A stretch of DNA of 56,030 bases, filler included, from Squatina squatina (taxonomy: Eukaryota), in the NCBI GenBank assembly GCA_031763465.1. It is 3 parts of 3 records of this genome, joined end to end, with 100 filler letters (N's around TTAATTAATTAA, not from the genome) between each part and the next. Parts side by side here need not be neighbours in the genome. Positions count along the whole stretch, not along the records: positions 29,002 to 40,910 come from JARFOE010073231.1; 2 more parts are not named here. One strand, 5' to 3'. The notes beneath the pieces are model-generated. The model ran no database searches, was not told the DNA's origin, and saw only the letters and a program-made list of their open reading frames with translations. Below are positions 28,902-47,952 of this stretch, in pieces. Every line of letters starts with the position of its first letter. Position 1 is the first letter of the stretch. The position numbers were made by a program, and so were the translations under genes.

Positions 28902-29001
28902 NNNNNNNNNNNNNNNNNNNNNNNNNNNNNNNNNNNNNNNNNNNNTTAATTAATTAANNNNNNNNNNNNNNNNNNNNNNNNNNNNNNNNNNNNNNNNNNN
29001 N
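28902..29001. other. Artificial contig-joining spacer
   Basis: 44 N + TTAATTAATTAA (28946-28957; stops in all six frames) + 44 N. Confidence 0.95.
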
Positions 29002-29815
29002 TTTTGGGTTGCGGTTTCCCATGAGTTGGTGGGGAAGTTGCATTTCTTCAATAAGGCCTTGAGGACGTCCTTGTAGCGTTTCCTCTGCCCTCCTCTGAGT
29101 TGTTTCCCATGGCGGAGTTTGGAATAGGGAGATTGTTTGGGAGTCTTGTCTCTGGCATGCAGACGATGTGACCAGCCGATCCCAGCTGATTGAGCATAAC
29201 CAGGGCCTCGATGCTATGGGTGTTTGCCTGGTTGAGGATGCTGACGTTGTTGCGTTTGTCCTGCCTGCTTATTTGCAGGATTTTGTGAAGGCAGCGTTGG
29301 TGATATTTCTCTAGAGCCTTGAGGTGTCGGCTGTACAGTGTCCATATCTCCAATGCATCAAAGCGAGCGGGTATCACTGCTACTCTGTAGACGATGATGT
29401 TGATGTCCAGCCTGAGGTTTTTGTCCTCGAACACTGTCTTCCTCAGGTGCCCGAATGCTACACTAGCGCAATGGAGGTAATGCTGGATCTCGCCGTGTAA
29501 GTCTGCCTTAGCTGAGAGGAGACTTCTGAGATATGGGAAGTGTTCCACAGTGTCCAGGAAATTGCCATGTATTTTGATGTTTGGGGCTTGGTGGTGTGTG
29601 CCAGGAGCGGGCTGCTCTAGCAGTTTAGTCCCGACTATGCTTAGAGTAAGTCCCATTCTCTCGTATGCCTCGATGAATATGTTGATGGTGGTTTGGCGCT
29701 CAGTCTCCCAGTGTGGGCAGACGTAGGCATCATCTGCATATTGCATCTCGGTGAGGAAGATAGAGGAAACCTTGGATCTGGGCTCTAGACAATGAAGGTT
29801 GAAGAATTCAGCCAA
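29002..29815 (-). mobile_element. RTE (BovB-like) LINE reverse transcriptase fragment
   Basis: ORF 29048..29824 has MQYADD (RT catalytic motif), HFPYLRS, YHQRCLHKILQI, GHIVCMPETRLP; frameshift near the end. Confidence 0.9.
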
Positions 29816-30829
29816 CATATACAATAGTTATAAGTAAATATCTGGGCTAAAGTTAAGGCGAAGAGACTTGTGACTGTCCCAAGGGCATTCCATCTTTTGA
29901 TGGCAAACGTTCATACATTGCCACTATTCGACTAACATGGGCTGCAACTTCATATGCATTTATTCCCACAGCTGATGTCACGCTTGAGATATTTGTAAAA
30001 AATTCAATCAATTTGCCCTCCAGGTCTGTCCGACAAACTCTATTAATTTGCAGTAATGTGCATGCCAATCTTTATTTTTAACCGTTGTATATGTCACCGG
30101 AGTTTTTAACCTAGATATTGGCCATCTCCTGATCTGCGTGCAGAGCATTCTCTCTCTTTGAGTATCCAAACTCTTTTTCCGAATACACAGTGACACGATT
30201 CTAATTCCTCTTTCTCCCACATTCGCCTCTGGCTAAAATGCTCAGGGCAAGCAGGCTGGGATACTTTGACGATTGACACTAATTTAGAATATTCTGACAG
30301 TAAGTTGATAATGTTGCAGTGCAGTTCTGCACTGACCGGCTTGAATGGCCGAGTCCACTTCCCTTATTTCAAAGAACAACAATCGAACATATTTTTTTCA
30401 GCATTTATCACATTTGCTTGCAATATGCACGTAGATACAATAATTCAGCTTGAAATCGCATCCACTGGCTGTTACTGTGTTTACAGACATTCTACGGATA
30501 ATAAGAGCATTGAATGTTAATGCAAGTTCCATCCTCTTTCACCTGCTATAAAATTTCAGCATTTGCTGATCAGAGGGAAAAGCTCTGAATTGTTTCTCTG
30601 TTTATTTCCTGCACTTTCCCATCCTCTCGACTCGCTACTCCCCGTTTGTTCTTGTCAGCTGACCTCTATTCTGATATCTCACCTTCCCCCTTCTCCCTTT
30701 CTGTGCACTGCTCTCCTCCGCTTCTAACCAGCGCTGCTCCAATCTGTTCGCTGCTCTTCCCCTTTCAAATCCTTTCCTCTCCTGCCCTCCTCTCCTCTCT
30801 TCATGCTCACCCCGTCCTCAGTCTTATCG

Positions 30830-31150
30830 GAAGACAGGAACAGGAGTTGGCCTTCCAACCCCTCGAGCCTGCTCCACCATCGGGATCCCTATACCCACCT
30901 TTGGCCTATAGTCATTAATACCTTTCATTAACATAAATCTTTCAAACTCTGATTTAAATTTTGCAATTGACCCAGCATCAATTGCCGCTTACTGAAGCAT
31001 GTCCCAAAATTCTACAGCCCTTTGTATGAAGAAGTGTCTCCGAATGTCACCCCTATAATAACTAACTCTAAATTTTACACTGTATTCCCCCATTCCGAGA
31101 ATCTCCAAACAGCGGACATAGTATCATTCCATCTACTTTATCTGTTCCCC
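30830..31150 (-). mobile_element. Old CR1 3' fragment
   Basis: acaggaacaggagttggccttccaacccctcgagcctgctccaccat...caattgacccagcatc...gaagaagtgt. Confidence 0.7.
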
Positions 31151-32024
31151 ATAATATGCTACTTCCGTATTCTGTCTCGCTCCCTCTCTGACATTCCCGT
31201 TCCTCGTATGGTGCACTTTCTCCATTCGCTCACCTTCCTCCCATTCCCATATGCTTCCTATTCCCGAACTGACTTTAATCAATCATCACACAGCCCTCCA
31301 ACCATTTTCTGGCCTGAATATTGCCCTTGACTTCACTCCTCCCGTGCAACAGTTTTGGAATTCAGTCATGAGTGGGGACGAGCAACTAAATCTAAGCTGG
31401 TAATTCAAACTCAACTTCCAACATATAGCTGGTAGCGAATGCTTTACAACCTATTGTGCTCACCCAATGATGTATTTCTGCACCGAACGATCTCTTTCCA
31501 GAGCATACTGTTGGATGTTAATTAAGTTGTCGACATGTCTTTCTCACCTAAGAGCATTAAATAGCCATTTCCAGCGCATATATACACTTTATTTTTCATG
31601 GTTCTGGAGCCAGCACACGTAAAATTGCTCTGATGATTCGTTTTGTCTAATTACGTTTTGCCAAATAAGATTACAGGCAAAGCATGTTCGGAAAGAAGCA
31701 CTTTCGTGTAAAACATGTTGCTACATAGATACTTGTGATAATGTGATAAGCAAGCAATGTTAAGTCTGCTAGAGAATCTGATGAAGGAATAAATCAACGC
31801 GGTAGGTTTTGTTGTTTGTATCTAGCACCAGCCTTTCACAGACCTTAATTCCCGTTCTTTCTAATTATTGGGAGGATACTCAGCCAGATTCTATAAGCCG
31901 TTTGTTTCCATGCAGGGCTTAGGATAATAAAGGCAACAGCATTTCCACCAGGATTCCCAAGTAGACATTTGTTTTCACGGGGCTTGGCGAATAACATGCA
32001 TCAATCACCCGTTGCTGAGATCTA

Positions 32025-32165
32025 TTATTTATTTTTCCCTTCGGCACACAAGCTTGTGCCGGGAACAGTGACCGAGGCAGCTTCTTCCCGATTCAGGATT
32101 GCCATATTCAAAGTGGCATAGGTGATCTCCTGATTGTCATTCTCTGCTACTTCCAAATCGAGTCT
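32025..32165 (-). CDS. Terminal exon of ITIM-bearing receptor (RLDLEVAENDNQEITYATLNMAILNREEAASVTVPGTSLCAEGKNK*)
   Basis: Acceptor tttgtctctttatcatgttgttgatcacag, phase 0, 141 nt; ITIM ITYATL at 32109-32126 after acidic residues; TAA then TAG. Confidence 0.8.
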   Translation of the reverse strand, partial: RLDLEVAENDNQEITYATLNMAILNREEAASVTVPGTSLCAEGKNK

Positions 32166-32229
32166 CTGTGATCAACAACATGATAAAGAGACAAACCTTA
32201 AATATATTTGCATAACCTGACACGTTCCT

Positions 32230-32435
32230 TGTCTCCAATTCTCACTTTCTATCTCTCTGTCTCCCATCCCCATCTTGCGCTCCATATCACACAGTCTCTC
32301 GCTCTCTTTCTCTCCGACTGTATATTTCCTTCTCTCTCCCTCTCTCTCTCTCTCTCCCTCTCTGTCCCTTTCTGAATTTTTCTGTCTTTCTCTCTGTCTC
32401 CCAGGCTCTCTCTCTCTCTCAATCCATCTCTCCCA
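32230..32435. repeat. Degenerate (CT)n low-complexity tract
   Basis: Interrupted tctctc runs; explains ORF 32275..32568. Confidence 0.85.
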
Positions 32436-32504
32436 CTTTATAATTTATATTCACGATTTTCGTTATAGGAGGCAGCAGAGAATAATTAACATTATTTCAA
32501 AACA

Positions 32505-32870
32505 TCAGAACATAAGAAATAGGAGCATGAGTAGGCCTTCCAGCTCCTCGAGCCTGCTCTGCCAGTGAACAATTTCATGGCTGCTGTTCTCCGTCAAAGC
32601 CACTTCCCTCCATATTCTGCATATCTCTTGATGCCTTTCACATCTGGAAAACAAGCAATCCATTTTGAATGTACCTCAAATATTGACCCTCTACAGTGCT
32701 CTGGGTTGGAGAATTCCAAAGATTCACCACCCTCTGTATGAAGAAATTTCTCCTCATCTCATTCTCAAGTGGCCTACCCAATATTCTGAGACTGTGACCC
32801 CTGAGTCTAGACTCCCAAAGCAGGGGAAACATCCTCCATGCATCAACCTGTCGATCTCTGTCAGAATTCT
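32505..32870 (-). mobile_element. CR1 3' fragment inside the last intron of the receptor gene
   Basis: Minus ORF MFPLLWESRLRGHSLRILGRPLENEMRRNFFIQRVVNLWNS; agaacataagaa tail. Confidence 0.85.
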
Positions 32871-32878
32871 GTGCTTAC

Positions 32879-32916
32879 ATTCCTCTCAGCATCGGAAGTA
32901 CGACTCCTTCTGACAT
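32879..32916 (-). CDS. 38-nt cytoplasmic micro-exon of ITIM receptor ((H)VRRSRTSDAERN)
   Basis: atttttcctttcag|ATGTC...GGAAT|gtaagc; phase 1 to 0, bridging the 53-nt exon and the ITIM exon. Confidence 0.75.
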
Positions 32917-34019
32917 CTGAAAGGAAAAATTTTGCATTTTATTACAGGATTTATTTGTGGTAACCTGCACATCAAAGAGAAAGTCGTCTGGCGACAATAA
33001 TTCTGCATATGATTCATGCATGATTGTATAATTTTTAATATAAGCTGATTCTGTATTCCATTTGTATTAAATAACCTGCAAATAATACAACATGGTTCCG
33101 AGCCAACGACTACCTCCAAGAACTGTCTTTGATTATTGAAATCAACTGCAGTCCTCGACTGACCATCTCTCACCGTCCAGGCACTCTGCACAGCTGCATT
33201 GCTCTGACTGTAAGGGGACATTGTTCTATTCCTACTGTAATACAACCTGGGCCTGAGCTTATGAGAAAATTAGCTACACAATACAGAGCTTGGACCTTTT
33301 GCCGTATACTCATTTCTAGGTGTTTGCCCAGCCTATAATCTTTTCAGGTTTTCATCTGTGCAAAAGCATTATTTAAAGCAGTGAGTGTGTACACAGTATT
33401 GTATATCCTACTGTGGTATATGCTGAAATTGAAACTGTCTGTTGTTCAGATTTAGAAACAAGGTTAAGAATTCCTTTTCTTCACCATTTGCGCTACCATT
33501 AAAATGTTAGAATGAGGGAAATGTGGATAACATTCTAAAGATGTTGTTCCAATTTCCATCTGTTTTCCCAGTGAGTGTTTACGGGATAGACTGCACCTAG
33601 CCTCTTGGATGCAAAGAAATATTTCGGATTTGCCAGCCATTAAATAAACCACCTATTTTTATGTTCCGTTACAAGCAGTTGATGGTCAGCCAGCCCAAAC
33701 CGTCCTGATTTGCCCATGGGGCATGTTGACTAGATGCCTTGATATGATAAATAGCACGAACAACAATGCCCCGTTGTATCTAATTGCAATCCTGAGCTCA
33801 ATTTTAGCGCGCAGAAACTACATGTTCCAGAAAAAGGAATGGACAATAGATCAGCTTCTTTCCAAAGCAGGTGTTATGCGTAACACGCTTAACAACGGTC
33901 CCAAATACCTGCAATCAATACAGCATATAGCAGAGTTTGTTGAGTTGCACTTTGCATTTTGCTGTGTGGTGTAAAATAGATGTTTATTTTCACATTTTGA
34001 TATACAGAGGTAGCGAAAG

Positions 34020-34255
34020 GATCACATAGGAAATACTGCAGTGAAACAAGCCAGGATCTCTGGTCTACTCGAGCCTCCTTTCGATTTCCTCATCCAAACC
34101 TATCAGAGTAACCCTCTGCATCTTCCTCCCTCAAATAATTGTCCATCCTCCCCTTAAATGCATCTACACTATTCGCATCAACCATTACATGTGGTAACGA
34201 GTTTCACACTCTCAGCACTCTCTGTGTTAAGAAGTTTCTACTGAATTCTCTATTA
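34020..34255 (-). mobile_element. Old CR1 3' fragment
   Basis: cccttaaatgcatctacactattcgcatcaacc...ctctctgtgttaagaagtttc; same family as 6430-6686 in reverse. Confidence 0.7.
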
Positions 34256-34668
34256 GGTTTCATTTCCACGATCGAATAAAATGATATGTTTAGCTGTGGA
34301 TGGTGACACAGCACAAGCGGTAAAGCTTTGGTCACCAGTTTAGCACAGCAATTGACATTTGGAAATTAGAACTCAATATCTGGCATGTCGTAGAATGGAT
34401 GAAAGTTATGATCCACCAGTTTTGTCTCCAATTCCACTCCTGTCGTATCAAATCCTTCACAAGCCAGTTAATTACTTTACTTTAAAAGAAACATTCGATA
34501 TTAGTTGTACTGAATAATTTAAAGTTACACTGGCTACGTATTTTGAAGGGAACATTGAAGCAATCAAAACAACTGTGACAAGGAAAATGAAAACGATCAA
34601 TATTATCGTTTGCATCTTGATGATTTAAGCCAATGATGCTGATGTAATGCCAGCAATATTGTACTTAC

Positions 34669-34721
34669 GCATGTCCTCATTGGATGCCTGAACTGTGGCT
34701 TCTCTTGCAGTGGCTGCACTT
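34669..34721 (-). CDS. 53-nt cytoplasmic micro-exon of ITIM receptor (SAATAREATVQASNEDM)
   Basis: atttttttttatcttgcag|AAGTG...CATGC|gtaagt; phase 2 to 1. Confidence 0.75.
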
Positions 34722-34891
34722 CTGCAAGATAAAAAAAAATAGTTGTTATATTATCCTATATATAACCAGAAAATAATGTTTTATTATCATTTGTCCTTTT
34801 CTAGGACAATTTAAGTGAATAATATTTCTTTGTATATTTTGTTTACAACTTTTAACAAAATAAAATGAATGTTATCCAATGAAGTTATTAC

Positions 34892-34919
34892 CTCTCAATA
34901 GGTTGCATTCTTCCTTTGT
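34892..34919 (-). CDS. 28-nt candidate micro-exon of ITIM receptor (phase unresolved)
   Basis: ttttctcattttgttttcag|ACAAAG...TGAGAG|gtaata. Entered in phase 1 it reads (D)KGRMQPIE(R) in frame with the 53-nt exon; entered in phase 2 it hits TGA. Confidence 0.5.
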
Positions 34920-35474
34920 CTGAAAACAAAATGAGAAAATATATACTAACTCACATGTTCCCAACTTATCATAATTTCAACTGTTGATTCGCTCTTATGG
35001 ATGTCTTAGTCTCAAAATTGTGTCTACTCCCTTTGTACAAAAGTACGGTGACAATACACCCACAATGCTGTCAAAATATAGAATGAGAAAATTACGATGA
35101 AAGTAATTTCCGGGACTTCAGGTTTTTTTTCAGCATAAGAGGATCTTCATTCACTTTCAAGCAAGCAGATCGACCAGGGTTAATTGCAATTTTTTTTGAT
35201 TGATTCAGCATTCAATGCTTCAGCTGATTCTCGCCCTCCACCAAACTAAATATACAGATTCACAGCTTGTTAATTGTAAGATTGCAGTAGTTTACCAGCT
35301 GAACTAATGTTCTGCTCAGATCCAATTTCTGGAGATCCCTTTCAATTGAGACAGGCAGCAGTATTCAACATTTTGTTAACCTTCCTCGCTGACTACCTTC
35401 ATTTTGGATAGAGATTGTTGGCTGATTGCAAGGTCCCTGCAGCGATTGCACGACATTCATTCACATACAAATAC

Positions 35475-35598
35475 TTCAATTTTCTAGGCGACTTCCTTCT
35501 CTTAGCGACCAAGAAGCAGATGAGGGCCACAAGCAGTAAAATGATTATCCCAGCTCCACATCCCAGGCCTGCATATAGTAACCATCCATTTCTTGCAT
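35475..35598 (-). CDS. Transmembrane exon of a type I receptor (ARNGWLLYAGLGCGAGIIILLLVALICFLVAKRRKSPRKL)
   Basis: Acceptor ttttcattttgactcacgttacag, phase 1; uncharged hydrophobic helix plus KRRK stop-transfer; donor gtattt (end 35475) or gtatgt (end 35469), both phase 2. Confidence 0.8.
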
Positions 35599-37074
35599 CT
35601 GTAACGTGAGTCAAAATGAAAACGTTATGATTTCAACTGCCACAATGTGAACCTTTTTATTACAGCATTTAATATGATTCATCACATGGGGTTAGATGCT
35701 TTTTCATTCTCTCTGGGTGCTAAGCATTCTCTCGGCCCTGCTCCCATAAGACATTTCCAGCAGTACTCCAAGCACGGACAGAACCTATCAGATGTTTGTC
35801 TTGCATCTAGTTCATCAGAACGAGCAACACAGAGATTCATGCCTAATCTTCCCTGATTTTCGTTCCTGCTCTATGCCCAGTTGAACATAATGCACACTTG
35901 GCGAAAATCGAGGTCAGATTCTAGAGCTCGATCTTCTCTCTCTTTAATAACAAATATTACAGAGATAGTGATGAGGAGGATTCTCTTCAAAAGTCCAATA
36001 GCCCTGCTGCAAATTATCAGCCATCAAACTCCTAAATTGATGGACATGTGGATGAAATTGGCGAAAGGTTAATTTACTGAGAGCAAAGGAACTGAATATC
36101 AGGCCATTCTCCAATTTCCACCCCAAGCTAAAGGACATAGATCATAGAAAATACCAGGCACCGAGTGGAGTCCTCGCACTGTAGGATTGTACCAGTGGGA
36201 TGCTTTGGGAACTGAATTTGATGTGAGCATATTAATTTCTGCATGATCGATAATCATACGGGGGATGAGCAGCGAGGTGATTTCTAAATAGAGCTCTGCT
36301 AGCTGTGGTGGAGGACAACATTTTAACCAGCAACTAAGATGAGTTTGCTGCTAAAACAGGATGATAATGCAAATGCATTGGCCAGTGGTCGCAGTTCCTA
36401 GTTTTTGTACCTAAAGCTCCTGTTATATCTCAGTTATTGCACTGATATGGAACGTCAGTTTCCTCAACCATTGCCAAGTTTTTAAGTTAAAGCATCATAA
36501 CAGAAATTTGTTGAATAAATCCGTCAAGGTGCCATTGGGAGATTGTCCGAGGCCTTGCCTATGTCTTAAATGAAAAGACAACTTAGAACACGGAAAGATG
36601 CCATTCGACCCAAATTGTCAACTTCGGCGCAGAGCCACCCCTGAAATCTTATTATAGACTGGTTATTACTTCCTGGATTTCATACTCTATCGCTCTGATC
36701 ATTAAACCAAGAATTCCAGCAGCTCTTTTTTGAACGACTTGTCAACTTGTGGTGTCACCTTTTTTGACCGGTGAACCTGTACCCCAGAATGCATTGGGTC
36801 CTGAACAGCACCAAGCAAGCTTCCATTCAGGCGACAGTTATTAGTCATTCATTTTTAACAAAACGTTTCCACCTCAAGCTCATTAATATTGAATCTACCT
36901 CAAAATTTCAACCCAACATCCATCTTAACAATAATTATTTGTAGCTGCATTTGGCTCTCAAAATGTTACCTCCATTTCCTACTTTGATACAATCTGCAGG
37001 TTTCTATGTCAGGTGCAAATAAAGATTGTAGCGTCGTAATGGAAAGGATATTGGTGGACATATTCGAGAGATAA

Positions 37075-37240
37075 TTTCAAAGCTGAGGCCCAGGTAGCAG
37101 CAGGTACGGCCACCAATGATGGAGTGTTTAAAATTGCAGGTAAGCAAGAGGGCAGATTTTGAGCAGTGGAGGGATCTCAGGTTCTCGCGAGCTGGAGGAG
37201 GTTATAAAGATAGGCAAGTGCGAGGGATTTGAACAAGAGG
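37075..37240 (-). mobile_element. Old L2 3' ORF fragment
   Basis: Reverse complement resembles 3358-3458 (ctcctccagc...ctcaaaatctgccctcttg...cattggtggccgt). Confidence 0.65.
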
Positions 37241-37469
37241 ATAAGAGGATTAGGCCATTAGGTCCTTCAAACCTGCTCTGCCATTCCATATGATCATGAC
37301 TGATCCTCAAGCTCAGTGTAATATTCCCGCTTTCTTCCATATTCCTTATTAGACTCGAGAAATCTATCTCTCTCCTACTTGAATATATTCAATGACTTGA
37401 CTTTCACAGCCTTCTGTGGTACAGAATTCATAAGGTTCACCATCATCTGAGTGAAGAAATTTCTCGTCA

Positions 37470-38015
37470 CACAGAAGTGAAATACTGAGGATGCTGGAAT
37501 GTAGAATACAAACAAAAAATGCTGCAAAAACTCAGCAGGTCAGGCAGCATCTGTGGAGAGAAAAACAGAGTCAATGATTCGTGTCGATGACCTTTCGTCA
37601 GAACTAAAAAAAACGCAGAAATACAGCAACTTTTAAGGCACTGACAGGCAAACTGGTCGTGGTCGGGGGAGGGTGGGCGGTGGTATGGAAGAATGAATGA
37701 CAAAGTGTAACATAATAGTCTGATTGTCTGGGAGGCAGAAGAGATTAAGAAATGATGCAAGGCAATCATCGGAGATAATGGCAACATAACGAAGCACATT
37801 GCATCTTGATGGGTGTAAACAGGGTGGAAAACACACACACACACACACACACACATGCAGCAATGACGGAAGGGAAAAATAGATTTAATTTAAAAAGGTG
37901 AAAAGAAAGAAATTAAGAAAATATTAGAGCAGAGGTTTTGCTCTGAAATTGTTGAACTCACTGTTAAGTCCAGATGGCTGCAAAGTGCCAAATCGAAAGA
38001 TGAGGTGCTGTTCGA
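37470..38015 (-). mobile_element. Penelope-like element 3' fragment nested in CR1
   Basis: ctcagcaggtcaggcagcatctgtggagaga...gacctttcgtcagaact terminus; flanked by cgtca at 37465-37469 and 38016-38020. Confidence 0.7.
37830..37855. repeat. (CA)n microsatellite
   Basis: About 12 perfect AC units. Confidence 0.95.
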
Positions 38016-38931
38016 CGTCATCTCAGTCCTAAAAGGCCTACCCCGTATTCTGAGACTGTGACATTTGGTTTTAGAAACCCCAACCAGGGGAAAAATCCTC
38101 TGTGCATCTAGTCCGTCGAGCCCTGTCGGAATTTTATATGTTTCAATAAGATTATCTATCATTTTTTAAAAACTCTGTGAATAAAGGCGTAGTCAACCCA
38201 ATCTCTCCCCATTCGAAAGTCCTGCCATCGGCAGAACCAGTTTGTTGAACATTCACTGCACTCCCTTTGTCACAAGTATTTCCTTTCTGAGGAAAGGAGA
38301 ACAAAACTGCACAGAGTACTCCAGGTCTGATCGAACCAAGGCCCTATATAGCTGTGTAAAGCATCTTTGCTAATTTACTCAAATCCTCTTAAAATGAAGA
38401 CCAACATAGTACTTGCCTGAATAACTGCTTGCAGCACCTGCATGCTTGCTTTCATTGACTTGTGCAGAAAGACACCCAGGTGCCTTTGTAAATCAATATT
38501 TCCCAATCTATTAACATTTAAAAAATACTTCTGCGATTTTCGCTCAATATTACCAAAGGCATGTGAGCTTTGATTGGATGGAGTTGATGTCACGGATTTT
38601 TGCTCAATCTCAAACTTCCTTCAGACCATGCAGAAAGTGGAGGAGTGCCTAAGCGTCTATAGCAGTCAGTGGACACATTTCATTATTGAATGTGTTGTTG
38701 AGCTTCAGTTCACTACAATGGACAGAATTCAATTCATACCATTTCCTGGCATGTACCCTGTGATCGGTCAATGAGAGCAATTCAGGTAAAACCAAGAGAA
38801 TGGAAGAAGATATCGGGAGTTTCCTGGGTATCCAATGCATTTCACGAATAAGAGTTAGTGCTGCCTGGGCTGTCGAGTGCCTGTTGCAACCCTATTATGC
38901 AAAACAAAGTGAGGGCTGCAAATGCCATGTA

Positions 38932-39030
38932 ACTACAACAGTGACTACACTCCAAATATTGCTACGCTGTCTGTAAAGCGCTTTGAGAAATCAGGTTGTC
39001 ATAAAAGGCGCTATGTAAATGTAAGTTACA
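38932..39030 (+). mobile_element. Deu-SINE 3' tail
   Basis: tacaacagtgactacact...ctgtaaagcgctttgag...aaaggcgctatgtaaatgtaag. Confidence 0.7.
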
Positions 39031-40422
39031 CTTTGTTCTCTTAATTTACACCACGATATTTCCAAAGGAGATAGAGAGATACACAGCTGTGGATGCATGG
39101 TTAACAGATCGACCGAATAAGTTAAAGATTTACATCAATTCCGTTAAAGAGACATTTGGTGTTTTAATTTTTTTTAAGGAGCCATCCATATCGGGGCTCT
39201 ACCTCCTTTCATCCTCTTTGAAAACTCTAGTATAAGAGTGCTCAGAACATGGGTGACATCCGTTTCTTTTTTATGATACTGGACCACATTTAGTTTGTAT
39301 GCGATAAAGATATTTTCCACTGCCATACAATTTCAAGCACTAGGTTGAATATGCACATTTTAAAAAAGTACAGCTCCGAACTTTACCTTAGCCCTGTAAT
39401 TGCTCAATTCAGGCCGTTTCCTGAACACTTCCATTTACCCTTTGAAATAAAGACAATTATCCTTCTGGAAGTTAAGCTTAAAGGACCCGAGAGCCACACT
39501 CACCGAACCCAAGAACAACTGTGAGACCAAGCATTGTGCAATAAGATTCACATAGATTGTTGGGAGTAAGTTCCTTTTCTTAGTTCTGTAATGACTGGTT
39601 TGAAGTTGACGTATATGACACTGCTGTTGCTGCAACACCCTGGAATCCAGCATATAGGTCAACAATACTGCAGTCACCAATCAGAGCACATTGTTAAAAT
39701 TAGCCAAGCTATCAATAAGGAACAAAGAGAATCACTCACTGTCAGCAGATAAGTTGACTCAGAGCAGTTCCTTCAACATTAATTGAACATGGTACAGAAC
39801 TATATATGTGTACACGAAGCACACAGCAACAGTGTCTTTTTGGTTTTTGAATTTCAGGCAAACATGAAGCATTTACCTTTGCTACAAAATTTTCAACATT
39901 GCAAATTATGTTCAATGTTAAAGGAAAGAACATTCTATATAAAAGTAGAGTGATGCTGATACTGGAACAAGCCCAGAATATCTGGTTTCCACTTTAGATT
40001 CAGTGATTTGCATTCATGACGTCAATGAGACCGAAAGTGCAGATATTCATGTTATTAAATCTCTGTTGCAAACTCTAATTAACCTTTTTTTTCAAATATG
40101 TTTAATCACTACATTGTTGATGTTGCAGATTTGTTATCTGTTTATTATAATAACTGAACTATTTCTGCAGTCAGTAATCAAATTAATAGGACACATTGTT
40201 TGCCACGGCATTTCATGGTCGCATGAGACTGCCACAGACAATTACTTCACCATTTTATACATTTCTCATCTCAAGTAAGAATATATTACATACAAGCAGT
40301 GCTTCAGACATGTCCGTTCATCTAAAGTCAATTCGTTTCCTTCTGAGAGCTAAAACACAATTGGGAAATATCAATCTTTCTCTCTCCCTCTTACGTCATA
40401 TCCACATGAAGCTACATTTGTA

Positions 40423-40424
<2 letters not shown>

Positions 40425-40470
<46 letters not shown>
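40425..40470. repeat. (TC)n microsatellite
   Basis: About 23 perfect TC units abutting a CR1 fragment. Confidence 0.95.
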
Positions 40471-40473
<3 letters not shown>

Positions 40474-40474
40474 C

Positions 40475-40910
40475 TTTGTTCATATGTCAGACCTGCCATC
40501 CCAGGAATCAATCTTGTAAACCTTCGCTGCAGTCCCTCAACAGCAAGAATGTCCTTCCTCAGAGTAGGAGACCAAAACTGCACACAATACTCCAGGTGTA
40601 GTCTCACCAAGGCCCTGTACAACTCAATAGGACCTCCCTGCTCCGATACTCAAATCCTCTTGCTCTGAATGCCAACATGACATTTGCTTTCTTCACTGCG
40701 TGCTGTACCTGCAAACCTACTTTCAATGACTGATGTGCAATGACACCCAGGTCTCGTTGCACCTCCCCTTCTCCTAATCGGTCACCATTCAAATAATAAT
40801 CTGCCTTCTTGTTCTTGCCACCAAAGTGGATACCCTCACATTTATCCACATTATACTGCATCTGCCATGTATCTGCCCACTCACCTAACCTATCCAAGTC
40901 ACCCTGCAGC
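40475..40910 (-). mobile_element. CR1 LINE reverse transcriptase fragment
   Basis: DRLGEWADTWQMQYNVDKC...QRDLGV...AVKKAN and YRALVRLHLEYCVQFWSP...LQRRFTRLIPG, one frameshift. Confidence 0.92.
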
Positions 40911-41010
40911 NNNNNNNNNNNNNNNNNNNNNNNNNNNNNNNNNNNNNNNNNNNNTTAATTAATTAANNNNNNNNNNNNNNNNNNNNNNNNNNNNNNNNNN
41001 NNNNNNNNNN
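40911..41010. other. Artificial contig-joining spacer
   Basis: 44 N + TTAATTAATTAA (40955-40966) + 44 N. Confidence 0.95.
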
Positions 41011-42849
41011 ACACCAAATCAGCTACTTTCACTTTAAACACCACCAGCAGGCATTAGGGCTCTAATGCACATTTGGTGCCGGCGCAGACTCTCCCATTGG
41101 GTCCCCCAGGCTTCTTCTCTGGGGGCCAGCAGCAGATTCCACCTACAAGTATTCAACGCAATGTCTTTTGTCACCTGGCTGCAAACCTTAATTGACTGAA
41201 TCAACCATTTGTAGAACAAAGTTAACAGCTATCAGGAGGCGAGATCAAACCAAATGGTTTCGCTATGAACTATCAACACATAAAAGCCACTGAGTATCAT
41301 CATCATGCTGGATTGTCTCTGGGAATGGATACACTAGCATAAAAATGCAGATTATAGGCTGGGTTGTTTCTTTAATAGAACCTGTTTTTTGCACCAAAAA
41401 TACCACAAAGAAAAGACAAAGTAAAAAGACAGCATGGGCAAATATTGAATTTTGTCACAGGATTTATTTCCTATAAAATATGATGAATGCAGATTCCATG
41501 GCTAACATTTTTCGTGCTCACATAGTAGAGTGATTCGAAATGCCTGGTTATAAAATGAATAAACCTCAGCCTCTAATGAATTAAGTCTGTAAAATCCAAT
41601 CATATATGTTTTTTAGTTTAGCTGGCATGATCATTGATTTATAGATAGATGGACATACTAATAACATCGCAAAATACATTTTCCTGCTCCTGGAAGGTAG
41701 ATTGTTAAAGTCAGTAGAAGCCTGTGATTGAAGTACCGAAGCTGGAGGCTTCAATTCTTGTGCAGATTGTGGTTGATAGTTAAAGGCAGAAACCTGAGCT
41801 TCATGTCACTTCAAGTTTAATACAATTTCCTTGCACAGTAAATAAAATCAGTGCAGATGATGCATATCCCAGACATTCACCAAACGATAAGGGGGATGTA
41901 GCCACATTCCTGACACTGGTTATTTGGATATGGAAACTGCCCACAGGGAACAACCTTGGGGGTCATTTCTTCTGTGCATTTATTGTAGTAAAACTGGAAA
42001 TGTGTTGTAAGGAATGCATTTGCAATTTAACTAGAATTAGTACAGAAGAGCTCTCCCACCCTGGAATCCTGCCCGACCAACACTCCCACGTAAATTCTTC
42101 CAGCCACAAAAAATCTTGACAATTTGAAGATGGTCAATACTTCAAAGTACGGTCTTCACATTATGCTGAAATATAGACACGTGGTGGGAGTTTACTGCAG
42201 ATGGGGTAAAGCCAACAGCAAAGAACATCCATCGAATAAGTGGAATAACAGAATTTTTTTTTGGAATACAGTATCAACCTTAGGAGTTTTGAAAAATATT
42301 TTTCTTCCAATTTGTAACTCTAACATAATGGCCCTAGAAAATTTGTGGCCGCTCTGGCTTACTCCTCCCAGAACGTCGACAGTTGTAGGATGGAATGGCT
42401 GGAAACGTGGCCAAGATCCAGAGATGCTGGATTCAGGTTTTAATTCGGGCCTTCTACAATGCCCTGTTGGGGATGGAGCCTCCACCCATCCCGAACATGG
42501 GCATCAGCATACCAGGGGGACCAGGCTGAGGTAACAATCCTTACATCAGAAGTTCCCATGTTCTGGGCCCTCAGTGGAATATAGCATATTATTGGTGGAG
42601 GTACCCTTGGGCAGACACGTGGCACAGGCACCTGCTAATTAAGGAATCTCCACCTAGTTCCTGCAAAGTCCACCAGGGTGGTTCTCGCCAGGCGTGATCC
42701 TGATATTGCCAGGATCNNNNNNNNNNNNNNNNNNNNNNNNNNNNNNNNNNNNNNNNNNNNNNNNNNNNNNNNNNNNNNNNNNNNNNNNNNNNNNNNNNNN
42801 NNNNNNNNNNNNNNNNTTATCCTGTCAACTAGAGTCAACACCGACACCT

Positions 42850-43200
42850 ATCTACGTGCAATCTGTGTGCAGTCTGCGTATGGCCTGTGCAGAGTCTGTG
42901 TACAATATGTGAGTGGTCTGTGTGCGGTCTGCATATGGCCTGTGTACAACCTGTGTGTGGGCTGCGTATGGCCTGTGTACCATCTATGTGGGGTCTGCAT
43001 ATGGCCTGTGTACAATCTGTGTGTGGCCTGTGTGTGGTCCGCATATGGCCTGTGCACAGTCTGTGTACAATCTGTGTGTGGTCCGCATATGGCCTGTGTA
43101 CCATCTGTGTGCGGTCTGCATATGGCCTGTGTACGGTCTGTGTGTGGTCTGTGTACAATCTGTGTGTGGTCCGCGTGCGGCCTGTGTACAGTCTGTGTAT
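42850..43200. repeat. Minisatellite of 11-bp monomers, mostly in 33-bp units
   Basis: ggtctgcatat/ggcctgtgtac/aatctgtgtgt; tatggcc recurs at 42934, 42967 and 43000. Confidence 0.9.
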
Positions 43201-45887
43201 TCCGTGTTGTCATTGTGTGATGATATTCAGTCTGAAGGACTAAAAATTGCATTGGCAGGGTCACAACATTATTGAGAAATAATTTGCTGCAGATGACTTG
43301 GCCAGTATAATTGACAACCATAATGGTGGCAGCTGTTGGCAATAAGAGAAAACCAATCGTAGTGGCAACAAACCTGAAATGTGAAACATTAGCAAGAAAG
43401 TTCATTGACAGAAAAAGAAAAGACAAGATCAGATATTGTAATTAAAAAGCTCTTTAAGAGACCTAACACAACCTGGGGAGTTCTGCTTGATAGTTAAACT
43501 AAGCTTTTCTCTGGTTCTGGTGTTCACAGAATGCTCAATTGCATAACAGTTTTGAACACATTTCAAGCTGCCTTTTTGTAGTCTATATAATTATGGTGAT
43601 AATGATGAATTACTAGTCTCTGCAAGTTGCTATTGTACTTGCTTTATGATTTCCAAATAATAGTTTCTTCCAAATTAAATGTCTAGCCCCATGTGAGAGG
43701 TACAACAGAGAAAACCCCTGAATGAAATAACATACCGGCTATACATATACAGTTTTGAATTCATCAAGTACTGGACCAGTTATAAATTCCACTTGGAGCT
43801 ACCTTATCTGTAGTAAACTCTGGTAATTCAGTGTATAACAATCTGGCGAGACTGCAACATGATTTGATCTGAGAGTAGAATCTCCAGTCTAGTTGCAAGT
43901 TGCAGCGGGACTGTGGATGTTAACAGCGAGCCCCAGCCCACCCTGCAGTGGAAATCTGTGCCTGCTGCCAACACTGAAGGTTGGGAATCTAAACTGGAAG
44001 TGGGCGGCAGAAGGAAGAAAAACAAAAAGACACATCTTGTTCAGTAATGCTGCTGTTGTTCTGATAGGCATTTATGAATAAATCCCTTCTTCTGTCCTTT
44101 TTCTTGCTGTACATTCCAGTTTACTCAGCAGAATGTTCTGAGGTTGAAGTAACGGCACCACATTTTAGAAAGCTTGCTGCAGGAGCGCGTAGGAAGAATT
44201 ATAAGCAGTGGCTGATGGCCCTGACAGGCAAGGATTCATTGCCTCGGTACAGATGGCATTGAGAGATGAGAGACTGTACATGCGGGTGAGAGATCATTGC
44301 TGTGGCAAATCTGTGCTCAAGGGGAGAAGGCAATGTTCTGATTTCAAGCTTCAGGAGTTATAGCCTAATGGTTCTTTTATCACCTGACTTTGTTGACAAT
44401 GCCTTTCTGTTCAGAGTGGTAGCATCCATTTTAATGAGCTTCACTTTTGCTTCTTTCACTAGCTGAGATTCACACTCCTCTGGATATGAGGAAGACTCCA
44501 GGTGAAAGCTATTTTATAGCTATTGCCAATGGTGCTTCACGATTAAATGGGAAAAGTTGGGTGCACAGGATGAGATGGGCGATTTCCTCTTCTAATGTCT
44601 CAGTATGGCCCCGTTTAAGAACTGATGGTTCGCACATAATTCAAGCAGCCTGGAGACTCGAGCTCATAGTTTAACAGTTAACTGCTCTGAGTTATTGCTT
44701 CAATCAGATCTTTTGAAGATGTTTTATTGATAAAAGATGATAACTGATAATCAGAAATATTAAGTGTTTGACCTGCATTTATTTTGAATTGCTTACAGTG
44801 CACTTCAGGATTGCAGCCTTAAGTATTATAAAAGGTGATACATTTTTGAAAAATGAAGAACTGTGACCATATTCTGTATTTTATGAGAATATAGAGATGG
44901 AGAAGGGGAGTTCACCAACATGCAATGTAGACTTTCATGCTTTGGAAAAGGAAGGGGATCAGCAAAATCATGGTCTTGTGAAAAAAAAAGAATTATGGAT
45001 GGGCCCTTACAGATAATTTCTTTAACAAATATTATCAAACATATCTCTCACAAATAGGCAGAGATATATCACTAGACTTCCTGTTTCCTGTTTGAGCCTG
45101 TTTCAGTGGTGTTGACTTCAGTTGAGTTTTTCTAAGTGTATAGATATACAACACATTTCTAATTACTTCATTGGAAGAACAGTTACAAGTTTTTTTTTAC
45201 CTTTCTATATAAACGACTTTGCCAAGCATGTATTGTGCTCTTGGAAGTTGTATTTTCATGTTATACAGTGTCAGGTTGAATGATCTATTGCTGCAATACT
45301 GCAGTTCCAAAATTGAGTAATTATGTTTGTGACTATTATATCTTTGTATATGAAGGTATGATTAAATAAAGTAGTTGTTAGCAGCAAAGTGAATTGTGTT
45401 CTCTTCAGCCCTCTGTACCTCTGAGGTGTGCTAATAATTAAGTCCTACCAATGCTTCACTTTACACATGTTGATGACTGAAGCTGTGTGTGGGCCTTTTT
45501 TAAACATTGCAATAAATTCCTAGACACAAACTGAAATCTTGATCCATTTCTCCTACACCCTAAAGATAGGGTCATCGTGTATGAGAAGGTAATGTGACCA
45601 TTAATCAGTTTTGATGAAAGCTTATACCTGAAATATTCCTTCTTAAATACTGTGCACTTTCAGATTTTCACCATTTACGATTTCTCTTGTTGACTGCAAA
45701 TACTATATCAATTGGTGCTCTCCCAGCCATCTATATAAGGACCACAGCAGTATTTGGTGTATAACACCCTGAAGGTGATTTTATTCACTGAGTGAACTGT
45801 TCAAATTTACCACTTTCAAAAATAGGAAAGGGTTCCTTTTAAATAGCCTAAAAGAAACTCAAATCATCCTATTCACTGGGAGACATA

Positions 45888-46941: not shown

Positions 46942-47035
46942 TAAGAACATAAGAAATTGGAGCAGGAGTAGGCCATTCAGCCCCTCGAGCCTGCTCCGCC
47001 ATTCAACAAGATCATGGCTGATCTTCTACCTCAAC
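46942..47035 (-). mobile_element. CR1 LINE 3' tail
   Basis: taagaacataagaaattggagcaggagtaggccattcagcccctcgagcctgctccgccattca. Confidence 0.85.
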
Positions 47036-47760: not shown

Positions 47761-47952
47761 CCTCTTTTGTGTGAACCCAATAAAACAATGATTAACAAAT
47801 TAAACTAAAACCCAAAACTTAACAGAAAAACCCAGTGCTTAAACTAAAATCCAATTGTCCCCGGTGAGGATGCACTCCAGTCCCCCCGGTGCCCACCAGT
47901 CGCGGAAGGCCTCAAGCATACCGGCGGACACCGCATGCTCCATCTCCAGGGA
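47761..47952 (-). mobile_element. 5'-truncated Tx1-clade element with 13-bp TSD, nested in a MITE-like element (about 47620-48180)
   Basis: Same family as 1719-1914; TSD tggctttctcatt (47748-47760) / tggcttcctcatt (47955-47967). Confidence 0.8.

Follow-up and report, generated by a model that had tools for sequence, protein, structure and literature searches.

CEACAM1, considered the founding member of its family, serves in mammals as an immune checkpoint and a pathogen receptor, and its ligands there are homophilic or microbial. CEACAM1 genes are recognised by three tail exons after the exon of the membrane helix, with an inhibitory motif (ITIM) or switch motif (ITSM) of the immunoreceptor tyrosine-based type in the tail, and intron phasing, which is not generally conserved across immunoglobulin (Ig) families, backs the assignment of fish CEACAMs (PMC2832619). 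Human CEACAM1 exon 7 is 53 nt long, and its exclusion leads to a proximal stop (PMC2490704); in rattlesnake CEACAM1, a 53-bp first tail exon likewise switches between long and short forms (PMC13278318, a preprint). CEACAM homologues of cartilaginous fish are described from expressed sequence tags of the little skate (PMC4079198, PMC3628338, PMC5112662), and an exon map of an inhibitory CEACAM tail from a shark or ray was not found in a literature search reaching few subscription journals. Here, we analysed a 56,030-nt stretch of DNA (the window) from Squatina squatina (GCA_031763465.1). One of its records, JARFOE010073231.1, carries four minus-strand exons, which we read by their layout, with slightly better than even confidence, as the 3' half of a gene for a CEACAM1-like inhibitory receptor; its presumed Ig exons would lie beyond the record end.

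Four-exon model and chance tests

AG precedes and GT follows the four exons, the last of which ends with TAA (Table 1). When joined, they form one stop-free frame with entry and exit phases of 1|2|1|0. This frame encodes a membrane helix free of charges, then the basic stop-transfer run KRRK, and finally a tail of 86 residues, in which ITYATL is the ITIM. The first-pass annotation of this DNA had proposed these exons with canonical splice sites and compatible phases, an uncharged transmembrane segment behind a phase-1 intron, and the ITIM in the last exon; all of these features were found again in the joined frame, the helix exon being entered in phase 1.

Table 1. Positions of the gene features and of the record that holds them, counted along the window
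Feature	Position	Strand	Details
Transmembrane exon	35475..35598	-	124 nt, phase 1 to 2; charge-free helix at ~35504-35581, then KRRK
First tail exon	34669..34721	-	53 nt, phase 2 to 1; strong acceptor, GTAAGT donor
Second tail exon	32879..32916	-	38 nt, phase 1 to 0; top-scoring internal exon candidate of the record
Last coding exon	32025..32165	-	141 nt including TAA, entry phase 0; 46 residues
ITIM ITYATL	32109..32126	-	55 residues from the membrane, behind an acidic stretch; Tyr codon at 32120
Putative second-motif remnant SLCAEG	32037..32054	-	Cys (TGT) 24 residues after the ITIM Tyr, 6 before the stop
Open frame past the helix-exon donor	35399..35474	-	Runs into the intron to TGA
Candidate polyadenylation signal AATAAA	31588..31593	-	First one 3' of the stop, ~430 nt on
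Record holding the gene	29002..40910		11,909 nt, bounded by 100-nt N/TTAATTAATTAA/N spacers
Artificial spacers	28902-29001, 40911-41010		Each 100 nt: 44 N, TTAATTAATTAA, 44 N

The helix pattern was defined as 21 charge-free residues followed by at least three Lys or Arg residues and was sought in six frames. It occurs once in the window; among 2293 simulated records of 11.9 kb, 11 held it by chance (a mean of 0.005 per record). A screen over 107 kb of both strands looked for micro-exons of 20-70 nt that combine a strong acceptor with a GTAAG donor. Only four were found, and two of these are the 53- and 38-nt exons, which lie between the helix and last exons on the same strand. By a heuristic splice matrix, the acceptors of the two micro-exons rank 4 and 6 among the 885 AGs of the record, and those of the helix and last exons are middling (97 and 71).

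A non-immune single-pass protein with an incidental ITIM-like hexamer (e.g., a YxxL for endocytosis), or unrelated exon-like pieces chained by chance, should be considered here. Loose ITIM matches are common, being present in 47 AG-preceded terminal frames of the window (overlaps included), and the loose pattern alone is weak evidence. A stricter acidic form, picked after the ITYATL frame had been viewed, is found in this terminal frame alone, with 0.22 expected per record. The nearest look-alikes of the helix exon in the ESM Atlas, a language-model comparison, are assorted single-pass proteins (0.84 or below), and the helix gave three insignificant FXYD matches among PDB sequences (E 0.16-0.82) and a sub-threshold FXYD-type match in Pfam. 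An FXYD protein was rejected because the likeness is a weak one of the helix only. The rarity of the helix-plus-basic pattern and the position of two of the four strong micro-exons between the helix and the ITIM exon stand against a non-immune or chance origin, and the acidic lead-in, the phase-0 entry, and the motif-like segment six residues before the stop fit inhibitory receptors. Such an origin is thus very improbable in our estimate, and the four exons are very likely a real gene fragment.

Other exon-like candidates were observed in the introns on the minus strand at 34892-34919, 33174-33203, and 33174-33207 (28, 30, and 34 nt); some of them fit in-frame chains, and they are possibly alternative exons or noise. 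The open frame past the helix donor at 35399-35474 holds a loose ITIM-pattern match near the membrane, which is probably due to chance. A GA-rich, microsatellite-like tract (32272-32452) lies ~100-290 nt upstream of the last-exon acceptor on the coding strand.

Comparison with CEACAM1 and other inhibitory receptors

The layout resembles that of CEACAM1 in that the helix exon is followed by three tail exons, the last of which carries the ITIM, and in that the first tail exon is 53 nt long. The ends of human exon 7 were read by hand from primers (PMC2490704), and its frame was set by the TEHKxS sequence (PMC2832619); this reading gives phases 2 to 1, the same as in the 53-nt exon here. In the frame of the present gene, skipping of this exon shifts the reading to a TGA in the 38-nt exon and leaves a 19-residue tail. 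A short ITIM-less form is thus predicted, as in CEACAM1, though the frame shift is not specific because any 53-nt exon would cause one. The likeness extends to mammalian CEACAM1, Xenopus ITIM Ceacams, and reptile CEACAM1.

Several points weigh against the assignment. Choosing the exon chain partly by the CEACAM1 analogy is somewhat circular. At loose thresholds, 34 chains run in frame from the helix to the ITIM, and the four-exon chain ranks 14th of them under a score favouring more exons; it alone links the two solely through exons that pair a top acceptor with a GTAAG donor. Because other in-frame chains exist, the exact chain is a prediction. The helix donor at 35474 is weak, ranking 222 among 620 GTs, and lacks G at both -1 and +5. 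An in-phase alternative at 35468, 6 nt downstream, has G at +5 and a slightly better score; it would extend the exon to 35469 and add two residues. The resulting 130-nt exon equals human CEACAM1 exon 6 in length. A third donor option at 35464 exits in phase 0.

Lengths and sequence also differ. The tail has 86 residues here versus 72-74 in CEACAM1, the predicted short form has 19 versus 12-14, and the second tail exon has 38 nt versus 32. TEHKxS, conserved in mammals, is absent from the translation of the 53-nt exon, which shares one of 17 residues with human exon 7 (by eye, ungapped). KIR, LILR, and LAIR1 have 53- and 38-nt tail exons as well. A dog ITAM-type CEACAM (ITAM, an activation motif of the immunoreceptor tyrosine-based type) likewise has a 53-nt first tail exon (PMC2110893), and because of these examples the 53-nt length is not unique to CEACAM1. 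The ectodomain and the gene neighbours lie off the record, and the family call is one of gene layout alone, because three protein searches gave no sequence homologue.

The second tyrosine motif should be noted as a further point against the assignment, since it is broken. In SLCAEG, Cys stands for Tyr and Gly occupies +3. The TGT codon is one base from a Tyr codon, and the GGG codon is one base from a Val codon; by comparison with other inhibitory receptors, the segment is likely a decayed second ITIM or ITSM, and the Cys codon may be an assembly error. The spacing of 24 residues from the ITIM differs from the 27 in CEACAM1; it is 23 in Siglec-7/9 and 30 in KIR, LILRB1, and LAIR-1 (PMC7226588). 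Because of this decay, the product is a one-ITIM receptor, with one intact tyrosine motif versus two in canonical CEACAM1, and the gene is not a canonical two-motif CEACAM1. The first-pass annotation had overlooked both the decayed second motif and the weak helix donor.

The same two features bear on whether the locus is a decaying or decoy paralogue, one losing its inhibitory tail and being either a young pseudogene or a gene whose main product, made by read-through of the weak helix donor, is a membrane form that lacks the ITIM. The second motif has changes at both of its key residues, the donor lacks both favourable G residues, and the frame continues into the intron to a stop, so that read-through there would be predicted to give a form without the last-exon ITIM. 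In turtles, genes derived from CEACAM1 are predicted to drop the ITIM exons through such read-through (PMC13278318). However, the four exons have neither stops nor frameshifts, the helix and the ITIM are intact, the micro-exon splice sites are strong, and a second in-phase donor with the +5 G is available. One-motif tails also have precedents in one-ITIM receptors such as KIR3DL3 (PMC7226588). We therefore regard a decaying paralogue as unlikely.

The gene could instead encode an ITIM receptor that is intact but belongs to another group of the Ig superfamily, or to a cartilaginous-fish group, as yet unnamed, with the ancient two-motif last exon in common. The candidate groups are SIRP-like or V-J type NITR-like, LILR/LAIR/LITR-like, CD33/CD22 Siglec-like, CD300/MDIR-like, and BTLA. 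An uncharged helix, short tail exons, and a last exon with an ITIM and a second motif are shared with LAIR-1, LILRB, KIR, and fish LITR; receptors of this kind ordinarily have short tail exons. The tails of LAIR1 and LILRB close with exons of phases 2, 1, and 0, and the 28-nt candidate at 34919-34892, open from phase 1 to 2, would give a four-exon LAIR-like tail. For that chain, a phase-1 donor would have to follow the helix, and the two GT options in that phase are both very poor (scores of -6.5 and -7.6); the helix exons of LAIR-1, LILRB, KIR, and fish LITR end in phase 1. Four or five tail exons after a phase-1 helix exon, as in LAIR1 and LILRB, were not found here, and the LILRB layout was rejected. 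LILRB1/2 have five tail exons, 12-16 (PMC12827074), and the 30-residue motif spacing of LAIR-1, LILRB1, and KIR also differs from that observed (PMC7226588).

An ITIM exon entered in phase 0 is a general feature, and teleost NILTs, of the CD300/TREM/MDIR-like group, share it together with a short tail exon of 35-62 nt (PMC3022915). Contrarily, NILTs have two tail exons with phases 1 then 0, a helix exon ending in phase 1, and usually several ITIMs (PMC3022915). The lack of a plausible phase-1 donor after the helix argues against such layouts, and the NILT layout was rejected because neither the phase-1 helix exon end nor a two-exon tail is present. Motif pairs 23-30 residues apart are common in inhibitory receptors, including Siglec-7/9, KIR, LILRB1, and LAIR-1, and Siglec-7/9 resemble the present tail in having a second motif ~23-25 residues after the ITIM near the C-terminus (PMC7226588).

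PD-1 of catshark and thorny skate is a cartilaginous-fish inhibitory receptor and also has Ala at pY+1 of its ITIM, but its tail differs by eye, is shorter, and keeps both tyrosines (PMC12151841). The PD-1 tail consensus, (I/V)(D/E)Y(A/G)(E/V)L(D/E)F and (T/V)EYATIx(F/Y) (PMC12151841), is not found here, and neither is the single-exon tail of LAG-3 with its (F/Y)xxL(D/E) (PMC10768021); both candidates were rejected. In a survey of the CD28 family, ITIM-bearing CD28HL3 was reported from bony fish and not from Chondrichthyes (PMC11599192). The position of the second motif is likewise comparable in SIRP-alpha and in the Siglecs just described, near the C-terminus.

As for exon layouts, PD-1 has two tail exons, and those of SIRP, BTLA, CD33, and CD300A also differ from the present one. 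The last ITIM of SIRP-alpha has a similar downstream context; SIRPA has tail exon phases of 1-2-0 and four tyrosines, and CD33 has one internal tail exon, unlike the exons here. On balance, membership in another Ig-superfamily group is possible though rather doubtful. The first-pass annotation had listed families for an inhibitory receptor (KIR/LILR/LAIR, CD300, SIRP, Siglec, LITR/NITR, MDIR), and CEACAM1, the best fit by exon layout, is missing from that list. The sequence and the chance tests support a type I membrane receptor whose ITIM lies in the last exon.

Ectodomain, homologue searches, and surroundings of the gene

Ig exons have phase-1 introns on both sides (PMC8274849), and the phase-1 entry of the helix exon fits an upstream Ig or stalk exon. 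In CEACAM1-like receptors, an IgV-like N domain at the N-terminus precedes IgC2 A/B domains; the ectodomains typical of MDIR, SIRP-like, NITR-like, and Siglec-like receptors are of the CD300-type V, V-C1, V-I, and sialic-acid-binding V-set kinds. No convincing Ig motif was found in six frames of the window, and no Ig-sized exon in the 5.3 kb upstream of the helix exon, where the phase 1-1 candidates are weak (n = 4, 42-84 nt). The ectodomain is absent because spacers bound the 11.9-kb record of this gene; the record stops 5.3 kb upstream of the helix exon, in a stretch that contains repeats. Membership in the Ig superfamily and fast evolution of the receptor, both proposed in the first-pass annotation, are inferences.

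Homologue queries were short (40-77 residues), and the protein searches were word-limited. Against longer proteins, none of the 13 candidates for the last exon (E ≤ 10) and none of the 51 for the helix exon were confirmed, and no candidate was obtained for the last exon among proteins of similar length. The helix and last exons gave no similarity match to CEACAMs (queries of 40-46 residues). There were no matches to the last exon among PDB sequences, no match above the curated cut-off in 12 frames searched against Pfam, and no match in Rfam. The last exon gave unrelated clusters in the ESM Atlas (0.90 or below), and these comparisons are uninformative for both exons. Pattern matches in metagenome contigs were confirmed in 0 of 596 and 0 of 586 cases. 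This blank is weak evidence because the queries were short and the search was not exhaustive.

The window consists of three joined records, and the spacers between them carry stops in all frames. CEACAM synteny markers are LIPE, BCL3, ATP1A3, PAFAH1B3, and CNFN (PMC5112662, PMC13278318). The neighbours across the spacers are uninformative on synteny because the spacers are artificial and the records unrelated; a link between the flanking records and the gene was rejected for the same artificial spacers. Besides the four-exon gene, no second gene was found on the 11,909-nt record. A minus-strand open frame of 259 residues at 29051-29827, with no Pfam match at E ≤ 1, resembles the end of a reverse transcriptase of a long interspersed element.

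We take repeats in the window to be shark-type short interspersed elements and CR1-like elements, from which a cartilaginous-fish origin was deduced. Repeats 85-88% alike are common to separate records (1732-1857 and 47827-47952; 32507-32597 and 46944-47034), which is consistent with an origin of all three records from one genome. A near-perfect 64-nt tandem duplication at 2280-2407 lies near an assembly gap and is possibly an assembly artefact. A tandem array with an 11-nt unit at 42823-43218, likely a minisatellite, opens long frames on either strand and matches a Mucin-like Pfam entry below threshold.

Predicted signalling and meaning

We hold with high confidence that the receptor would operate like CEACAM1-type ITIM receptors. 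Clustering of the ectodomain would allow a Src-family kinase to phosphorylate the Tyr of ITYATL, and the phosphorylated motif would recruit SHP-1 or SHP-2 to damp activating signals. Both phosphatases are present in sharks and rays with conserved ITIM-binding sites, and ITYATL, by our reading, agrees with the library preference of the SHP-2 N-SH2 domain at four of the five non-Tyr positions (PMC12151841). Only one phosphotyrosine per chain is available because the second motif reads Cys, not Tyr. Inhibition would then be weaker, or two clustered chains would be required to engage tandem SH2 domains, or a partner with a single SH2 domain, such as SHIP-1, would act instead. SHIP-1 is such a partner of FcgammaRIIB.

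Skipping of the 53-nt exon would give the short form without the ITIM, in the manner of the CEACAM1 long/short switch. Read-through of the weak helix donor, as predicted for turtle decoy genes (PMC13278318), would also give a form without the ITIM. Putting these predictions together, we propose tentatively that this is a CEACAM1-type gene with the 53-nt switch exon of human and snake, so that the long/short switch would date from the jawed-vertebrate ancestor, and that this copy, having lost the second motif and possibly added a read-through form, would encode a detuned one-ITIM checkpoint receptor.

The gene does not represent a novel type of system, and automated annotations of shark genomes may already carry such models. 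If the CEACAM1-like assignment is true, a cartilaginous fish has the tail layout of CEACAM1 at this locus, possibly together with the splice switch, and the exons would serve as probes for orthologues. The broken second motif would further provide a natural test of the capacity of a single ITIM.

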